Positions 13,518 to 22,705 of a DNA stretch of 64,000 bases are shown piece after piece. The DNA is taken from the NCBI RefSeq assembly GCF_003790525.1, contig NZ_CP033635.1, one strand, 5' to 3'. The DNA is from Escherichia coli (GTDB taxonomy: Bacteria; Pseudomonadota; Gammaproteobacteria; Enterobacterales; Enterobacteriaceae). Made by a program: the position numbers and the translations under genes. The notes beneath the pieces are model-generated. The model was not told the origin of the DNA and did no database searches. It worked only from the letters and a program-made list of their open reading frames with translations. Positions within the stretch are counted from its first letter, which is position 1. Each line of letters begins with the position of its first letter.

Positions 13518-14500
13518 TGTACGATCCGGAGACATGGTAGACAGGTGTTCGGGGACATGGTGAACACTTTTTAACATTCTTTGCCATGGTGATCGACTTA
13601 TTTTTCAGGTCGATCACCCCCACTTTTGTACTGTACCACCAGACTTCATACTGACCGTCTTCCTGCGTCTCCTTCAGCCCCAGGCGTTCATTTCTGAATG
13701 CCTTGCCCGCACTCAGACTGACACCTCTCAGACTCAGTTTACCCCTGATATCCACCTTCCTGACTACCACACCCTCGTCATACTCCGGCGGCTCTACATT
13801 GCTCCTGAACTGTCGCGCTGACGGCTGATACCGTGAGGCAGGAACAGCCATATCCAGAGCTTCATGCGGGCGTTCAAGATTATAGACTGTACGCCAGTGA
13901 TCGAAGGCGCGCTGCAACTCACCCGCATCTGTAAACCACTTACCCTGCAAAACTTCCGCCTTCAGACTGCGGTGAAAACGTTCCAGCTTGCCCTGCGTCT
14001 GTGGATGGTACGGGCTGGAGTGCCCCACCTTGATACCCTGACGCATCAGCCATAACTCCAGTGCCGTCCAGGTGCATCCTGTCCGGCAGTCCGTAGTGTT
14101 CAAATACGCTGACCAGCTGTTGCTGCACGGTCGTCCGTTGTTCATTGGCGCAGTGAGCCAGACACAGGGAAAAACGGGAATGATCATCCAGCAGCGTTAA
14201 CGGATGGCAGCGTCCACCGCCAAAGGGAAAGTGCCCCTTAAAATCCATCTGCCAGAGCTGGTTCGGCGTGTTCGAAGCGGCCCGTCGCCGGGGCTGCCGC
14301 AACCAGACCGGGCAGAAGGCCATTGCGGGCCATCAGGTTATGCACCGTGCTGAAGGCGGGCAGAACAAACTCAGAACGTAGTGACATGGTATCTCTCGCT
14401 TCCCTGGGCATAAGCGGCTCCATAAACGGGTTCTGATGCCTTAGTTGTAAGTATCAACCATGTCTCCGAACAAGTGTTTACTATGTCTCCGCATCGTACA
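13518..14500 (-). mobile_element. IS481-family element inserted into the degenerate intron copy, 6-bp target-site duplication CACCTG
   Basis: About 45-bp terminal inverted repeats beginning TGTACGAT(C/G)CGGAGACAT...; CACCTG at 13512..13517 and 14501..14506. Confidence 0.6.
13560..14423 (-). pseudogene. IS481-family transposase with at least two frameshifts
   Basis: Three ORF pieces in three frames (14238..14423, 13940..14323, 13483..14187) with integrase-core motifs ...SPYHPQTQGKLERFHRSLK... and ...YNLERPHEAL... Confidence 0.65.
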
Positions 14501-14645
14501 CACCTGTCTGAGGGAGGAGACTGCCCGTCGCACTCTTTGTCTTGATTGCCGCAAATTGGCAGAGGTCGGCAACGCGAGTGTGATAAGCGTTAATGTCCCA
14601 GTGTTTTGCATACATGTCAGAACACCTTTGACTGTAAGCGCATAC
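14501..14645 (-). other. Degenerate second group II intron copy, fragment B
   Basis: Reverse complement aligns with intron 1 domain I at about 15737..15890. Confidence 0.45.
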
Positions 14646-14707
14646 TGATCTTACCCACCAATAGTGGACACAGGACTAAGTGAGTAAACTCTTAACCAGG
14701 GTGACTC

Positions 14708-15007
14708 ATGACAAAACCAGTATCAATCAGCAAGAAGCCCCGTAAACAACATACGCCTGAATTTCGTAACGAAGCCCTGAAACTCGCTGAACGCATCGGT
14801 GTGGCCGCCACAGCCCGTGAACTCAGCCTGTATGAATCTCAGCTTTATGCCTGGCGCAGTAAACAGCAGCAACAAATGAGTTCGTCAGAGCGCGAAAGCG
14901 AACTGGCCGCTGAAAATGTCCGCCTTAAACGACAACTGGCGGAGCAGGCTGAGGAACTGGCCATCCTCCAAAAGGCCGCGACATACTTCGCGAAGCGCCT
15001 GAAATGA
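14708..15007 (+). CDS. IS3 OrfA
   Basis: [54 protein letters not shown]... Confidence 0.85.
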
Positions 15008-15406
15008 AGTATGTCTTCATCGAAAATCATCGGGCAGAGTTCAGCATCAAAGCGATGTGTCGTGTACTTCGGGTTGCCCGCAGCGGCTGGTATGTCTGGC
15101 TCAGGCGTCGTCACCAGATGAGCCTGCGCCAACAGTTTCGGCTCACCTGCGATGCCGCTGTCCATAAGGCATTCTTTGAGGCAAAGCAGCGATACGGTGC
15201 TCCCCGCCTTGCTGACGAACTGCCGGAGTTCAATATTAAAACCATTGCCGCCAGCCTGCGTCGTCAGGGGCTGCGGGCGAAAGCCAGCCGGAAGTTCAGC
15301 CCGGCCAGCTACCGTGCACATGGCCTGCCCGTATTGGAGAATCTGCTGGAGCAGGACTTCAGCGCCAGCGGCCCGAACCAGAAGTGGGTGGGTGACATCA
15401 CGTACT
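15004..15406 (+). pseudogene. IS3 orfB, 5' exon (ends ...QKWVGDITY)
   Basis: ORF 15004..15471; IS3 OrfB homology stops exactly at the intron 5' end. Confidence 0.8.
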
Positions 15407-16062
15407 GTGTGCCCGGAGTTCAGGGCGAGCATAGACGCTCAAATGAACCACGAGTCTGTCTGGAATATTGAACCGGTAACTCACGATGAGAAACCCAACA
15501 ATCCCACCGGGTGTGACGGTGGAGAACCTGAGCGGCAGTGACCTGCGGCATGCCCGCAGGGTGATGTAACCCGCTGACAACGGGGATTGAGGCGAGATCA
15601 CTAAGCCGAGATGATCCTCAAGGTTAAGTACTGAAAGGCTTAAGAATATGAACCCGTTAATCCGCCTCTGTGGGTTGAAAACGTCACCACGGCCTACGTG
15701 ATCTGACAGGCCGTGCAGGAGGAACTGGCAGTGATACGTAAGCACTGCCGGTCGAAGGTGTTTTGACATGTATGCGAAACTCCGGGGCAGCAGCGTCTAT
15801 CACGCTCGCGTTGCTGACTTCTGCCAACTTGCGGCAAGCAAGGATAAAGAGTGCGACGGGCAGCCTCCTCAGTATGTCTGAGTCCAGTCAGGCAAACCGG
15901 GGAAGGTCAGCGACGGATGTTAAGGGGGCATGGCTCCGATGACGCGCTGGCTGGCGGAGCTTCCGTAGTAGTCCGCGATGGGGAAAGCCCATTACATGGC
16001 GAAGGGAAGCAGTTTGAATGTGTCTGCGACGTAAATTAACTGACCTAACGAGGTGAAGACCT

Positions 16063-17586
16063 TTGATAATCAGCGAAATGCAACGCAAGCTTGCCACATG
16101 GGCAGCCACCGATCCGTCCCTACGGATTCAACGGCTGCTGCGTCTGATAACACAACCAGAATGGCTGGCTGAAGCGGCGCGGATCACGCTTTCATCAAAG
16201 GGGGCGAATACCCCCGGTGTTGATGGCGTGAACAAAACAATGCTACAGGCCAGACTGGCTGTTGAGCTGCAAATCCTCAGGGATGAATTACTCTCAGGCC
16301 ACTACCAGCCCTTGCCCGCCAGGCGGGTTTACATCCCTAAAAGCAATGGCAAACTGCGACCACTGGGTATCCCCGCGTTGCGGGATCGTATTGTTCAGCG
16401 GGCCATGCTGATGGCGATGGAGCCGATATGGGAGAGTGATTTTCATACGCTCTCATATGGCTTCCGGCCTGAGCGCAGTGTCCACCACTCGATCCGCACG
16501 GTGAAATTACAGCTCACCGACTGCGGTGAAACCCGGGGACGCTGGGTGATTGAAGGCGACCTGTCCAGTTACTTCGACACCGTACATCATCGACTGCTGA
16601 TGAAGGCTGTACGCCGCAGGATCAGTGACGCACGTTTCATGACTCTGCTGTGGAAAACCATCAAGGCGGGACATATCGATGTCGGTCTCTTTCGGGCGGC
16701 CAGTGAAGGTGTGCCACAGGGCGGTGTTATATCGCCGCTATTGTCGAACATCATGCTGAATGAGTTCGATCAATACCTGCATGAGCGCTACCTGAGCGGG
16801 AAAGCAAGAAAAGATCGGTGGTACTGGAATAACAGTATCCAACGGGGCCGAAGTACGGCGGTCAGAGAAAACTGGCAGTGGAAACCCGCGGTGGCGTACT
16901 GCCGCTATGCCGATGATTTTGTCCTCATCGTCAAAGGCACCAAAGCACAGGCGGAAGCCATCAGGGAGGAGTGTCGGGGTGTGCTCGAAGGCAGTCTGAA
17001 ACTCAGGCTGAACATGGATAAGACTAAAATCACCCATGTTAATGACGGCTTTATCTTTCTGGGGCACAGGATCATTCGCAAACGCAGTCGTTATGGCGAG
17101 ATGCAAGTGGTCTCAACGATCCCGCTGGAGAAAGCCAGAAACTTCGCCGCATCGCTGACAGCACTGTTATCAGGCAACTACAGTGAAAGCAAAGTCGATA
17201 TGGCTGAACAACTCAACCGAAAACTGAAAGGCTGGGCCATGTTCTATCAGTTCGTTGATTTTAAGGCCAAAGTCTTCAGTTATATCGACCGTGTCGTGTT
17301 CTAGAAGCTGGCTCACTGGCTGGCCCGCAAATACCGTACAAGTATCGCTTCCCTGATGAGGTGGTGGTGTAAATCACCGAAACCGGGTCAGAGCAAAACG
17401 TGGGTTTTATTTGGTAAAACCAATCACGGCAAGCTCAGCGGCGAAATACTGTACCGGTTGGTGGGGCAAGGCAAGAAGCTGTTCCGCTGGCGGCTACCCG
17501 AAGGTAATCCCTATCTGAGGACGGAAACCAGAAAGACGTATACATCGCGCTTTACAGAAGTGGCAATGGCGTTCGCCAGCGTTTAA
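16063..17586 (+). pseudogene. Group II intron-encoded reverse transcriptase/maturase, interrupted by in-frame TAG at about 17302..17304
   Basis: RT motifs including ...CRYADDFVLIV...; X-domain motif ...KLKGWAMFYQF...; ORF 16063..17304 and in-frame ORF 17356..17586 (...KLAHWLARKYR...) together end just before domain V. Confidence 0.75.
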
Positions 17587-17591
17587 ATGGA

Positions 17592-17626
17592 GAGCCGGAT
17601 GCGCTGAAAGGTGCATGTCCGGTTCG
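17592..17626 (+). ncRNA. Group II intron domain V (catalytic hairpin)
   Basis: GAGCCGGATGCGCTGAAAGGTGCATGTCCGGTTC: AGC triad, GAAA tetraloop, two-stem hairpin typical of domain V. Confidence 0.75.
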
Positions 17627-17676
17627 GGGAGGAGAGGCAGGGAAATAGTCCGACTACGCCCTGCCTCTTACTCTAC

Positions 17677-18128
17677 TGCGTACCGATGAGGGCTGGTTGT
17701 ATCTCACAGTAGTCATCGACCTGTGGTCACGCGCCGTCATTGGCTGGTCGATGTCACCGCGAATGACAGCACAACTGGCCTGTGATGCACGGCAAATGGC
17801 GTTGTGGCGGAGAAGACGCCCGGAAAGCGTCATTGCTCATACGGACCGTGGTGGTCAATACTGTTCAGGGGATTATCAGGCGCTGCTGAAGCGACACAAC
17901 CTGCGTGGCAGTATGAGTGCGAAAGGCTACTGTTATGACAATGCCTGTGTGGAAAGCTTCTTTCATTCGCTGAAGGTGGAATGTATCCACGGGGAACGCT
18001 TTAGCAGCCGGGAAATAATGCGGGCAACGGTGTTTAATTATATCGAGTGTGATTACAATCGCTGGCGTCGTCACAGTGCCTGTGGCGGTCTCAGCCCGGA
18101 ACAATTTGAAAACCATAATCTCGCTTAG
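17677..18128 (+). pseudogene. IS3 orfB, 3' exon
   Basis: ...[30 protein letters not shown]...HNLA; ORF track 17697..18128. Confidence 0.8.
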
Positions 18129-18158
18129 GGCCGTGTCCACATTACGTGGGTAGGATCA

Positions 18159-18602
<444 letters not shown>

Positions 18603-18665
18603 TCAGTCTGGTAACTATCGTAAACCGTTCAGTGGGAAGGATATCAAGAGCACTGTAGCTTTTTA

Positions 18666-18827
<162 letters not shown>

Positions 18828-19805
18828 TCACTGGATTCCCGGTATGAGTAACTTTTATTAACGATAAGCCAGGCTATTTGTGCATTGGTGTTGAGGTGAG
18901 AATAGCACCAGTCAGGTGAGCAGATTATAATGTTACGAGACTTAAGCACCTCTGTAGCTCCCATGGTCTGATAGTTTCTCCCGTATACCGCTCATGCAAC
19001 TCCCGCATTAAAATATACTGTTCCTTCCGGATAATTACGTTAAAATATACACCTGCGTGCATCTGTGTCAGACTCCGTTAGATACCAGCGTACATTGTAA
19101 ACATGCCGGATGCACGCAATACAATAATCGGTCTTTTCGGAGTTATAGTCACCAGGCTGGCATCCCGTAAATATGTATCAGGTAGCAATTCAGGAAGCGA
19201 ACAAAAGCGCCTGGAGAAGGTTATCTCTGATAATAATTTACATGAAATGTCTCCTTTATTCTTCGCGAATAAGGCCTTCAGTGTTCTCCCCTTTTCAGCA
19301 ATTCTTACCGTAGTAATCACTCCTGCCTGTGTATAACACGAGAATTGCCAGAGTTTAACGTTTCGGTATCGTTATCCTGCATGATGTTGAACAGAACCGG
19401 GCGTGAATTCTGCGCCAGAATTTTCTTTCGAGGAACATTCCGGGTTATCTGTAGTACAGGAGGAGATTTTCTCCTATTTCAAATAAAATTCAATGACAGG
19501 TGAATATTTAAATATAAATGCATCGCTTCAACAGAGAAATCGGAATTACGCCCGGAACCAGGCCTGAATGAATAATGGAGGAGGTAAAATAATATTATTG
19601 ATGAAAATATCAAATTAAGTCCCCCTTCTCCTTCCCCAGCTTAAATATACTTACTTTTTCACTGGATAATATGTTATTGAATTACAAAGTTGATCCTGAT
19701 ATACATGATTTCCGGCTCTTGCATCCAGTGATAACTTTATATAGTCCTGCAAAGGCGAACTTCGTAAAAGTATACTTTTCTGTTGTAAGCATTGAGGTAT
19801 CGAAA

Positions 19806-20030
19806 ATGAGTGAGAATACCGGAAAATCCCATGAAAATAAAATGGTTATTATTGACTACGGGGAATATGATGAATACCTTCGTAACGCGTGGTTCCGAGG
19901 TTTTCGGGAAGGTTATGATATGGCGATGAAATTTGGATTAGGCTGCCAGCAATGTTATGAAACAGGTGAAAAAATAGCATGCGCAAGAGCTGAAGAATGC
20001 CGTAAAAAGATTAAGGTAATAAAACACTGA
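19806..20030 (+). CDS. Hypothetical small protein (74 aa, four Cys), low-GC
   Basis: ORF 19671..20030; internal start MSENTGKSHENKMVIIDYGEYDEY...; no recognisable family. Confidence 0.25.
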   Translation: MSENTGKSHENKMVIIDYGEYDEYLRNAWFRGFREGYDMAMKFGLGCQQCYETGEKIACARAEECRKKIKVIKH

Positions 20031-20158
20031 AACGGGCTGTCTGATATTTCTGTGAGCTAAAAAGACACCGTAATACAGGTATCTCACAGTAACTGAAAGA
20101 TATGCACATGCCGCCAGGGAAGATTAAGGGTAAGGGAGGATATCCCTTACCTGATTGA

Positions 20159-20683
20159 TTATGGGATGATACCACAGGCAATTCTTGCACCACCGCCACC
20201 TAGAGGTTCAGGATGGTCATCATGATTATCACCTCCTGCGTGGAGCATTAGCGAACGGCCATCGAGCTCCTTTAATTCAGATAGTCTTGGCGCAAGCACC
20301 GGGTAGGTTGCTTTTCCGTCATGAGTGACATAAAGCGCAGGGAGATCACCTAGGTGGCCATCAGGAGACCATGGACCGAGATGCTTCCCTGTTTTTTCCG
20401 GGTCAAAGTGACCACCTGCAGATAAAGCAGCGACAGTTTTTCCATCTTTCAGGGCAGGAGCACAACTTGCGTTTTCATGTACATGAAAACCATGAATGCC
20501 GGCGGGTAAGGAGTGAAGATCAGGGGTGAACAGCAGCCCGTAGGGTGTCTTCTGGATGGTTATTTTACCAATATTTCGCTCTTTTCCGTCACTATCAACA
20601 AGATTCATTGTTACATCTTTGGTGGCTGCATATCCACAGGATGATGTAGCCAGAATCACAAAGGCAATAAGTTTACGTTTCAT
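20159..20683 (-). CDS. sodC: Periplasmic Cu/Zn superoxide dismutase (horizontally acquired paralog)
   Basis: Signal peptide; Cu/Zn SOD motifs ...[10 protein letters not shown]..., ...[12 protein letters not shown]..., ...GDLPAL..., ...[10 protein letters not shown]... Confidence 0.85.
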
Positions 20684-20938
20684 AAACCCTCTGTTAACAG
20701 GTTAAAGATTTACTCAATAACTGTTGCGAAATAACAGTCAGCCAGATGATAGCTTATGATAGTTATTGAATGTGACTATCAGTGTAATTAATTATGCAAA
20801 TTAGAAGGAATGTTATGTGTGAAGCGCCCCTGTATCCCGCTCATACTGGCTAACCCAGACACGCAGAGTCTGTGGCGTACAGCCAGCATTTGAGGCAATG
20901 GAACAAATTACCCCAATTGTGAATCATACTCATCCTGT

Positions 20939-21491
20939 TTACCTCTTTCTCAGGGAGTTTAGTCTCCAGGATTCCCGGAGCAGTTCAAAGTGCCCTGTGC
21001 TGCTTAAAGTGCCGCTGCATGCCACCACATGGCTGAGCAGCAACAGGTATTGTTGTTCCTTCATGTTGTTCACGCAACCAGCGTAATACCACCGGCGAGG
21101 ATGGACTGTCAGTGTGATTACGTTCAGTAATACGTTCATAAAAGGAAGTTCAGAATGCATGAATCTGTTGTCCGTTGATGTTTCCTTCTGTCGAATTGTG
21201 TGTGAAGTGGACAATCAGAAAATGCGGCCAGTGATCCACTGCCTGTTGAATAAAACGCCGGATGTCTCCCGGCTCTGCAAGTAATGCTTCAGTTTCCTGC
21301 ACTATTTTATCCCTGTTGAATTTTGTCAAACCGGTGCAGACACGCAGGAAAGTATGCCAGCACTGGTGTAATGCCAGTAACATACAATAAGAATGAAATG
21401 ACGAATCAGTCAGGAAAGGGTGCCCCCATTGGCAACCCATTGACTGAGCAGAGGATACAATCAGGAAGGTTAACGAGAGTATCTCCGACAT
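20939..21491 (-). pseudogene. Fragmented copy of an island gene also present at 48328..49122
   Basis: ...IRRFIQQAVDHWPHFLIVHFTHNSTEGNINGQQIHAF... matches ...IRRFIQQAVDHWPRLLAVHFTLHSAEGNINGQQIHAF... at 48328..49122; two ORF pieces in different frames. Confidence 0.35.
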
Positions 21492-22337: not shown

Positions 22338-22705
22338 TCCCATAAAGCCGGATACGCTCATTTTGGGCGGGATCTCCACAAGCATATGGATATGATCTGC
22401 ACAGCACTCAGCTTCAAGAATCCGTACACTTTTCCACTCACACAGCTTTCTCAAAATACTGCCTGTTGCTTTACGCTTCTCTCTGTAGAACACTTTTCTT
22501 CGGTATTTTGGCGCAAAAACTATGTGATATTTACAGTTCCATCGGGTATGCGCTAAGCTCTTTTCGTTCCCCATTGGGACCCCCTTTTGATTTCTTGTTT
22601 GACACTTGCAGTTGCCAGACCGCAAGGTGTTTTAACAAATCAAAAGGGGTTTTAATAACTGGCTCAAAGCTGAAAGCTTTCCGGCCCCCAGCCTAGCTGG
22701 GGGTT
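22338..22705 (-). mobile_element. IS200 remnant: left end and first about 79 codons of tnpA
   Basis: MGNEKSLAHTRWNCKYHIVFAPKYRRKVFYREKRKATGSILRKLCEWKSVRILEAECCADHIHMLVEIPPKMSVSGFMG then stop; left-end palindrome CCCCCAGCCTAGCTGGGGG. Confidence 0.6.

Follow-up and report, generated by a model that had tools for sequence, protein, structure and literature searches.

Can a group II intron that interrupts a transposase gene still be removed once the frame of its own maturase contains a stop codon, and is that transposase gene then lost for good? Both questions are raised by a locus in the window, i.e., the whole stretch of 64,000 nucleotides of Escherichia coli DNA analysed here, in which such an intron occupies orfB of an insertion sequence. 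The intron at 15407-17676 is referred to as the window copy in the following.

Anatomy, host element and identity of the intron

The intron and the two parts of its host element are arranged as follows.

15407..17676, plus strand: group II intron E.c.I4, bacterial class A, 2,270 nt, 5' GUGUG, 3' AC
14646..15406, plus strand: left part of ISEc16 (IS3 family), with the left inverted repeat TGATCTTACCC..., orfA, and the 5' portion of orfB
14708-15007, plus strand: ISEc16 orfA, from the ORF list
17677..18158, plus strand: right part of ISEc16, with the 3' portion of orfB, (L)RTDEGWLYL...NHNLA, and its stop at 18126-18128

As a sequence-only reading of this DNA had described, the window copy begins with GTGTG (15407-15411) right behind the codons for KWVGDITY, with the T of a split codon in between; the preceding exon reads ...AAG TGG GTG GGT GAC ATC ACG TAC T, and the 5' portion of orfB ends in ...KWVGDITY plus this T. 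The 3' end is AC (17675-17676), as the group II boundary rule (5' GUGYG, 3' AY) prescribes, and the Rfam family RF00029 (domains V/VI) has been found to match 17590-17676 (64 bits vs. a gathering score of 40, E 2.8e-10), stopping exactly at the intron 3' end at 17676. Joining 15406 to 17677 gives the predicted junction ...GACATCACGTACT|TGCGTACCGATGAG, in which a Leu codon is split T|TG. The predicted ligated exons of the window (...ACGTACT|TGCGTACC...) are matched exactly at this junction by the annotated, uninterrupted ISEc16 of E. coli N18-04097, to which the host element is 99.2% identical. From the sequence, the spliced orfB is predicted to be an open reading frame of 284 aa that keeps the DDE residues, so that excision would indeed yield an intact IS3-family orfB, as had been proposed.

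The window element shows the hallmarks of ISEc16, namely inverted repeats (the right one being ...GGGTAGGATCA), orfA and orfB, an A-AAA-G motif for -1 frameshifting near 14969, and the D/D/E contexts. IS3 itself is ruled out as the host, as ISEc16 is ~81% identical to IS3; the earlier description of a complete group II intron in IS3 orfB has thus held for the completeness of the intron and for the IS3 family, but not for the element named. ISEc16 in turn is embedded in an older, related class A intron, whose remnants surround it.

18159..18258, minus strand: older intron remnant 1, intron positions about 19/25-118, 84-90% identical
14514..14645, minus strand: older intron remnant 2, positions 332-464, which is the 132-bp E.c.I4-tr2 of SMS-3-5
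about 13518-14513: IS fragment that parts remnant 2 from remnants 3 and 4
13364..13517, minus strand: older intron remnants 3 and 4, positions 483-545 and 666-759, with an internal deletion

The 87.9% relative in HB37 has been considered as the source of these minus-strand fragments and rejected, being overall no closer than other relatives. A 3-bp target-site duplication is absent around ISEc16 (flanks ...CATAC and CTCCA...), which has no bearing on the identity of the element. The flanks correspond to non-adjacent positions of the older intron (332 and 118), pointing to a deletion or an IS-mediated rearrangement. The nesting of IS, older intron, ISEc16, and E.c.I4 records the order of the invasions.

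The window copy is an E.c.I4 intron and the orthologue of E.c.I4-25 of strain SMS-3-5 (NC_010498:3241200-3243469). The two are 99.9% identical (2,268/2,270), with point differences at 16424 and 16489 only, and share the TAG, the locus, the host IS, and the flanking 132-bp fragment E.c.I4-tr2. Compared with intact copies encoding WP_001189111.1, identity is 98.7% over 2,270 nt (30 substitutions, 1.3%), and both values lie above the >95% nucleotide identity to a named intron that the naming rule of the intron database sets (PMC3552965). The IEP layout of RT, X, and C-terminal extension without D/En fits bacterial class A, to which E.c.I4 has been assigned (PMC3552965; PMC3522654). The window copy is already known, being flagged in RefSeq and present in the literature: Leclercq & Cordaux (2012, PLoS One 7:e52268; PMC3522654) have classed E.c.I4-25 as full length and ORF-disrupted and have placed it inside a strain-specific genomic island, in an account that names neither the ORF-disrupting mutation nor ribozyme changes nor mosaic relatives. 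According to the same work, E.c.I4 homes into one fixed orfB position of the IS3-family elements IS629, IS911, ISEc16, and ISEc31. The codons GA(Y)AT(Y)AC(N)TA(Y)N also precede each of the three further E.c.I4 copies with flanks read (two distinct targets), and at 44 related loci from Gammaproteobacteria the intron follows them with few exceptions.

The maturase frame and its amber codon

16078..17586, plus strand: RT/maturase pseudogene (ltrA-like), 502 codons if intact, RefSeq "internal stop"
17302..17304, plus strand: in-frame TAG, G-to-A at 17303 in the Trp409 codon TGG

The IEP starts at ATG 16078, or at an alternative TTG 16063 behind a GAGGTG Shine-Dalgarno sequence, and its frame ends at TAA 17584-17586; from 16063 to 17586 the TAG at 17302-17304 is the single in-frame stop, just as had been read earlier. 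Pfam analysis of the read-through protein has returned RVT_1 (residues 86-332, E 4.8e-34) and the maturase domain GIIM (residues 356-426, E 1.2e-10) and no endonuclease (D/En) domain; for the class-specific C-terminal tail of 76 aa, Pfam gave no match. Since codon 409 falls within GIIM, the TAG lies inside the X/maturase domain, which bears out its earlier placement. The best solved homologues of the read-through IEP are LtrA and the GsI-IIC RT, and in the structure of the latter (6AR1) codon 409 aligns with the thumb region. The TAG cuts the product to 408 aa and thereby removes the final portion of the thumb/X domain together with the 76-aa tail; for class D IEPs, the C-terminal region has been described as needed for maturase function (PMC3552965).

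Alignment of the IEP to intact homologues has shown that these read TGG and extend 93 residues further: position 17303 is A in the window copy and G (TGG, Trp409) in intact E.c.I4 and in 8/8 more distant relatives, which rules out codon 408 as a natural C-terminus. The X/maturase (thumb) domain has suffered a true nonsense mutation. The single-base difference from intact copies could suggest a sequencing or assembly error at a true TGG codon, but this reading is effectively refuted by the recurrence of A at 17303 in SMS-3-5 and in 41 E. coli entries of RefSeq whose listed identity over the full 2,270 nt is 100.0% and which come from many different laboratories and sequencing platforms. Moreover, this A co-occurs with about 29 other lineage-specific SNPs, and RefSeq independently reports an internal stop in 5/5 TAG-bearing records with annotation read, the window copy being annotated as "ltrA, pseudogene, internal stop".

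It might further be supposed that a product of 408 aa still works, as a naturally shorter or domesticated reverse transcriptase, or that the TAG is read through. The RT fingers/palm (RVT_1, 86-332) are intact, and E. coli K-12 likewise keeps a truncated E.c.I4 RT fragment, ykfC. Against such a function, homologues do not terminate at codon 408, other strains have TGG at the same locus, and amino-acid changes are not depleted relative to synonymous ones in the window lineage (4-5 vs. 3 in the ORF). The 93 codons past the TAG are still open as well, which is explained by a recent mutation. We know of no recoding signal in the E.c.I4 family that would favor read-through, and altogether a functional product is considered highly improbable.

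Ribozyme changes and confinement to one locus

17592..17625, plus strand: domain V, 34 nt, with AGC triad, GAAA tetraloop, and 2-nt bulge
17628..17674, plus strand: domain VI, with the bulged branch-point A at 17670, six nt 5' of the 3' splice site
15395-15400, plus strand: putative IBS2 ACATCA in the 5' exon, from a pairing table of 19 intron/exon pairs
15401-15406, plus strand: putative IBS1 CGTACT in the 5' exon, from the same pairing table
15562..15567, plus strand: putative EBS2 UGAUGU, identical in 18/19 aligned family members
15737..15742, plus strand: putative EBS1 CGUAAG, in the loop of the hairpin 15727-15749

Domain V had been called canonical, which is correct for the AGC triad and the GNRA loop; the bulge, by contrast, is AU in the window copy and AC in every compared relative, with U at 17616 replacing the C of intact E.c.I4 and of all compared distant relatives. 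The fold with the bulged A at 17670 has a z-score of -5.9. The putative IBS1 and IBS2 overlap the codons of the catalytic-Asp motif D-I-T-Y. Pairing of the putative EBS2 with the window IBS2 is complete (6/6), whereas the putative EBS1 pairs at 4/6 positions with the ISEc16 exon, being mismatched at -5 and -1, compared to 6/6 with the IS629-type exon CUUACG. The EBS1 register CGUAAG is suggested by covariation at -6, -5, and -1, the observed pairing being reached by 64/5,000 permutations; the alternative register GAUACG, with a potential 5/6 pairing to the ISEc16 exon, has been set aside because the family covariation favors CGUAAG. As Rfam at a permissive threshold gave no domain I-IV family match for a bacterial class A intron, the domain I fold is that predicted by RNAalifold, and this prediction, rather than a curated group II fold, has been used in the conserved-site analysis.

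Seven changes of the window lineage have been found at otherwise invariant sites, at 15433, 15641, 15647, 15888, 15893, and 16024 (invariance judged across 14 relatives) and at 17616 (8 relatives). In the RNAalifold structure, the change at 15641 disrupts a G-C pair conserved without exception among the relatives, and 16024 lies just 5' of the ORF start, in the region expected to contain DIVa, to which the maturase binds with high affinity. Invariance is no proof that a site is essential, as the active E.c.I4 lineage has one or two changes of its own at otherwise invariant positions, e.g., 15450. The complete ribozyme and the otherwise open ORF point to a recent inactivation.

Regarding distribution, the 54 full-length copies of at least 99.2% identity are all chromosomal, and the loci inspected are the same ibrAB...sodC locus in 9/9 cases, with no TAG-lineage copy at a second locus seen among these nine. 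This locus belongs to an IS-rich aerobactin/sit chromosomal island, and the TAG-bearing ISEc16::E.c.I4 copy is a marker of one lineage of that island. With near-identical copies found at one chromosomal locus only, the window copy looks like an immobile fossil.

One could still imagine a copy that is crippled in cis and nevertheless spliced, perhaps even mobilised, by a maturase supplied in trans from an intact E.c.I4, so that orfB would not be fully silenced. Intact E.c.I4 is only ~1.3% divergent and is present in full length (intron coverage of 80% or more) in 1,873/5,426 complete E. coli genomes. Some TAG-copy chromosomes contain further E.c.I4-like places, about 2-7 each, of which any intact one could supply the maturase, and the full-length ribozyme has kept both putative exon-binding sites, domain V, domain VI, and the branch A. 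However, group II maturases preferentially act on their own encoding RNA, many carriers have just one E.c.I4 place per chromosome (in XDL and 1517k, for instance, the TAG copy is the sole E.c.I4), and the TAG lineage has not been encountered beyond its single locus (9/9 orthologous). The changes at conserved positions of the ribozyme, among them the domain V bulge and 16024 near the expected DIVa, and the 4/6 IBS1-EBS1 pairing in ISEc16 also count against rescue in trans, which we regard as unlikely.

Probable history, mosaic relatives and known systems

The copy is very probably an E.c.I4 intron that retrohomed into ISEc16 orfB, acquired an amber codon at Trp409, and has since been passively inherited as a non-splicing, immobile fossil. 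In the sequence of events suggested by the nesting, ISEc16 would first have inserted into the older related intron within the aerobactin/sit island, and E.c.I4 would then have retrohomed into its usual target, the W-x-G-D-I-T-Y catalytic-Asp codons of ISEc16 orfB. A later G-to-A transition would have converted Trp409 of the reverse transcriptase/maturase into the amber stop, upon which the window copy most likely stopped splicing and moving, and ISEc16 transposase would no longer be made from that copy. Drift would have introduced the changes at conserved ribozyme positions thereafter, while the intron was passively inherited with the island. Bacterial group II introns require their own maturase for splicing in vivo, and with a maturase cut to 408 aa the window copy is most likely non-splicing and immobile. 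It is reasonable to expect impaired splicing on these sequence grounds, all the more given the lineage-specific ribozyme changes and the lack of spread to a second locus; loss of splicing and of mobility is what we infer from them.

The disruption of orfB by the TAG copy agrees with the earlier reading, which had called it permanent. This word is too strong, because in several other strains the same-locus copy is a mosaic in which TAG is replaced by TGG within recombination tracts; the stop has been removed in at least three strains (B771, EC17CM2, F1022) and possibly in TUM9803. The mosaics of B771, EC17CM2, and F1022 have an intact ORF and have kept U at 17616 and ends of the window type. 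Such mosaics most likely arose by gene conversion from active E.c.I4 copies, and they show that an inactivating mutation can be lost again when intron copies recombine. More tentatively, and with considerable doubt, a dead intron copy may be no evolutionary dead end, with fossils forming a reservoir that gene conversion reactivates; if repaired mosaics splice or move, this would be relevant to the extinction-recolonisation model of bacterial group II introns. Beyond correct annotation, the significance of the window copy itself is small, as it is a textbook case of a retroelement that parasitises another mobile element and then decays.

Among known systems, an intron in E. coli groEL described in a 2024 preprint has no relation to this E.c.I4 copy. 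RmInt1 in ISRm2011-2 of Sinorhizobium meliloti also lacks an endonuclease domain and resides in an IS transposase gene, and its inactive and fragmented copies build up in genomes. In contrast to the class A intron E.c.I4, RmInt1 belongs to class D and uses another IS family and another target motif, and its splicing and mobility have been measured experimentally. Active E.c.I4 / S.f.I1 (IEP WP_001189111.1) resembles the window copy in length, boundaries, exon-binding sites, an RT-X protein lacking an endonuclease domain, and insertion point in orfB of IS3-family elements, but is free of the stop at Trp409, the domain V bulge U, and the six other changes at invariant sites. Closest in fate is ykfC / E.c.I4-tr1 in the CP4-6 prophage of E. 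coli K-12, likewise a dead and passively inherited E.c.I4 copy; ykfC, however, is a 1,764-bp 3'-truncated fragment, whereas the window copy is full length and carries a point nonsense mutation.

The intron and its interrupted maturase frame

In the window sequence, the last bases of the 5' exon, up to 15406, read ...AAG TGG GTG GGT GAC ATC ACG TAC T; the intron starts with GTGTG at 15407, directly after the codons for KWVGDITY, where the sequence-only reading had placed it. The Rfam model of group II domains V and VI (RF00029) matches 17590-17676 with 64 bits (gathering score 40, E 2.8e-10), and the end of this match coincides exactly with the resumption of the 3' exon, TGCGTACCGATGAGGGC... 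Compared with shuffled controls, domains V and VI give a much better fold (z -5.9), with a bulged A at 17670, 6 nt ahead of the 3' splice site. In the ORF list, the frame of the intron-encoded reverse transcriptase/maturase (IEP) runs from TTG 16063 to 17304 (413 aa) and resumes from 17356 to TAA 17584-17586, its sole break being TAG 17302-17304. Boundaries, domain V/VI and long ORF are well beyond chance, and the earlier description of a complete group II intron with a single TAG in its frame has been borne out by the RF00029 match and the ORF list. RefSeq starts the IEP at ATG 16078; a Shine-Dalgarno-like GAGGTG lies 6 nt 5' of TTG 16063 (within 16051-16080), and the true start, with the expected maturase-binding site DIVa nearby, may be this TTG. 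A window-specific change, 16024, is located near TTG 16063 and the expected DIVa region.

The window intron differs from an intact copy by 30 substitutions, without any indel. Position 17303 is A in the window and G in that intact copy, which gives TAG versus TGG (Trp409, numbered from ATG 16078). The proposed alignment to intact homologues supports a genuine premature stop, as the intact copies encode 502 aa (WP_001189111.1, annotated as group II intron reverse transcriptase/maturase) and G17303 is present in each of the eight more distant relatives in the alignment (lowest identity ~78%). Pfam assigns RVT_1 to residues 86-332 and the maturase-specific domain GIIM to 356-426, so that codon 409 does fall inside the X/maturase domain; further Pfam domains are absent from the IEP, which therefore has no endonuclease domain. 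Residues 374-427 align with the thumb region (residues 310-365) of the solved GsI-IIC RT (6AR1). The truncated product is predicted to retain the polymerase core and to lose roughly the final quarter of the X/thumb domain together with the entire 76-residue C-terminal tail; in class D proteins, a part in maturase function and mobility has been reported for the class-specific C-terminal tail (PMC3552965). Judged from sequence comparison, the mechanism proposed earlier, in which a stop in the maturase domain would cause poor splicing and a disrupted orfB, is the most likely one.

The host element and its nested surroundings

With its flanks (14646-15406 and 17677-18158) joined, the host element measures 1,243 bp; it has inverted repeats of IS3 type, orfA, an A-AAA-G motif for frameshifting, and a 284-aa orfB, open throughout, in which the DDE contexts are kept. 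The host had been named IS3 orfB; it is indeed an IS3-family orfB, but the element is 99.2% identical to those named "IS3-like element ISEc16" by RefSeq and only ~81% identical to IS3 proper. The uninterrupted ISEc16 of E. coli N18-04097 reads ...GACATCACGTACTTGCGTACCGATGAG..., exactly the ligated exons predicted, and the intron boundaries, which divide a Leu codon of orfB into T and TG, are thereby fixed to the nucleotide. The expectation that splicing would restore an intact orfB agrees with both this match and the open 284 aa. Five of the six orfB nucleotide differences from a reference ISEc16 alter an amino acid (A101V, V129A, T145A, R173L, A188V), which fits a relaxation of constraint on the interrupted transposase.

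ISEc16 sits, in opposite orientation, within what is left of an older class A intron, 81-90% identical to E.c.I4, the class A intron represented by the window copy:

18258-18159, minus strand: older intron positions ~19/25-118
14645-14514, minus strand: older intron positions 332-464
13517-13364, minus strand: older intron positions 483-545 and 666-759

A frameshifted "integrase core domain" IS fragment lies between the second and third pieces, and the N-terminal part of another IS3-family orfB (minus strand) precedes the older intron, whose 5' junction, on direct reading of the sequence, seems to have been lost by a ~45-nt deletion. The arrangement is a four-level nest of IS3-family orfB, older intron, ISEc16 and E.c.I4, with the older intron broken by ISEc16 and another IS fragment. 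The inverted repeats of ISEc16 are intact, its flanks (14640-14650, 18155-18165) lack the 3-bp target duplication, and they correspond to positions 332 and 118 of the older intron, which are not adjacent in it. A rearrangement has therefore occurred during or after ISEc16 insertion, implying either that ~210 nt were deleted or that an IS-mediated rearrangement took place.

One locus, further lesions and mosaic copies

Full-length copies at least 99.2% identical to the window number 54, all chromosomal, 41 of them listed at 100.0% identity. Nine loci were inspected (SCU-115, SMS-3-5, LR-31, B771, TUM9803, EC17CM2, EF5-18-41, F1022, Ch1), and every one is the same, with ibrAB on one side and sodC on the other, within an IS-rich island that also has sitABCD and aerobactin genes; among these nine, there was no sign of a second site. 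At least 80% of a 6.5-kb query spanning the locus is matched in only 32 genomes, a shortfall for which the left-flank deletion seen in two inspected strains (EF5-18-41, EC17CM2) would account at least in part. By homology to E. coli Ch1, window ~1-13000 and 19000-46000 is an IS graveyard in a chromosomal island with ibrAB-like genes, sodC, sitABCD, the aerobactin iuc/iut cluster and numerous IS pseudogenes (IS3, IS110, IS66, IS21, IS256, IS630). At 22584-22705 (minus strand), the Hfq-binding sRNA family STnc490 (RF01405) is matched over its full length (133.7 bits, gathering score 56).

The polarity of the 30 differences has been inferred from relatives (14 for the first six sites, 8 for 17616). 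Derived states of the window lineage are found at 15433, 15641, 15647, 15888, 15893, 16024 and 17616, where every relative compared sides with the intact copy; the active lineage has changed at only one or two sites that are invariant elsewhere. In the RNAalifold consensus, 15641 G-to-U would disrupt a G-C pair invariant in all relatives, and the 15888 change a pair with 15459. The domain V bulge, whose second nucleotide is 17616, reads AU in the window and AC in the family, so that the domain V earlier called canonical is not fully so. The IEP ORF of this lineage has acquired 4-5 amino-acid changes plus the stop versus 3 synonymous changes, about the neutral expectation. Relaxed constraint following inactivation would be expected to leave such a pattern, the functional effect of each single change being inferred.

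At the orthologous locus (15407-17676), window-type and active-type diagnostic SNPs are mixed block-wise in five strains:

Mosaic copies (active-type tract; codon 409)
LR-31: 16206-17126; TAG retained
B771: 15641-15893 and 16491-17341; TGG
EC17CM2: 15641-17341; TGG
F1022: 16206-17303; TGG
TUM9803: 16323-16524, plus lone G at 17303; TGG

All five keep window-type ends, including U17616, and their chromosomes hold 5-9 E.c.I4-like places; ltrA is intact per RefSeq in all four TGG strains. Ancestral polymorphism as the source of the tracts is ruled out because they contain derived states of the active lineage (15807 T, 16743 A), which marks them as imports; the stop position of TUM9803 is the sole ambiguous case. 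The mosaics look like gene conversion between intron copies that would have repaired a dead retroelement ORF. "Permanently disrupted" thus fits the window copy in its present state, but over evolutionary time it need not apply to the locus, since TGG replaces TAG in four strains.

Target recognition and prior record

A search for exact matches to the intron's first 20 nt has gathered 44 loci from Enterobacterales, Vibrio, Photobacterium, Marinobacter, Pseudomonas and others, with overall identity down to 68%. In nearly all, the intron lies immediately 3' of ...TGG nnn GGn GAY ATY ACn TAY n, which encodes the W-x-G-D-(I/V)-T-Y motif bearing the first catalytic Asp of IS3-family transposases. 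Two candidate exon-binding sites (EBS) have modest support:

15562-15567: candidate EBS2, UGAUGU, conserved and single-stranded, complementary to exon -12 to -7 (6/6 pairing in the window)
15737-15742: candidate EBS1, CGUAAG, in the hairpin loop 15733-15743

Across the family, covariation links the EBS1 loop to exon positions -6, -5 and -1 (observed pairing reached in only 64 of 5,000 permutations). With the IS629-type exon CUUACG the pairing of CGUAAG is 6/6; in the ISEc16 exon, CGUACU, positions -5 and -1 are mismatched, leaving 4/6. On this assignment ISEc16 would be a workable but less than optimal target, and splicing efficiency could be reduced further as a result.

The 2,270-nt intron is matched by thousands of enterobacterial records, including 2,668 of 5,426 complete E. 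coli genomes (mostly 95-99% identity) and many Klebsiella, Citrobacter, Salmonella and Enterobacter plasmids. The defective copy is already on record, as it is listed in the literature and flagged in RefSeq ("ltrA ... pseudogene, internal stop" in SCU-115, SMS-3-5, LR-31, EF5-18-41 and Ch1). Supplementary tables of Leclercq & Cordaux (PMC3522654) place E.c.I4-25 of E. coli SMS-3-5 at NC_010498:3241200-3243470 and, 762 bp upstream on the opposite strand, the 132-bp, 84% identical fragment E.c.I4-tr2; the SMS-3-5 copy is said to "exhibit[s] a disrupted ORF" (PMC3522654). Its region aligns with window 10254-21045 at 99.7%. The feature is thus already known, a fossil copy of E.c.I4 within ISEc16, real but not new; recombinational repair in other strains is its only mildly interesting extension, and gene conversion has already been reported for another enterobacterial intron (PMC3522654). 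Class A, described in 2013 as 'three almost identical members', appears much broader, to judge from the 44 loci across Gammaproteobacteria that share the intron start, almost all of them with the same target codons, and from the covariation of EBS1 loop and exon. Within it, the closest known counterpart is E.c.I4-25, which differs from the window intron at 2 positions and has the TAG in common with it.
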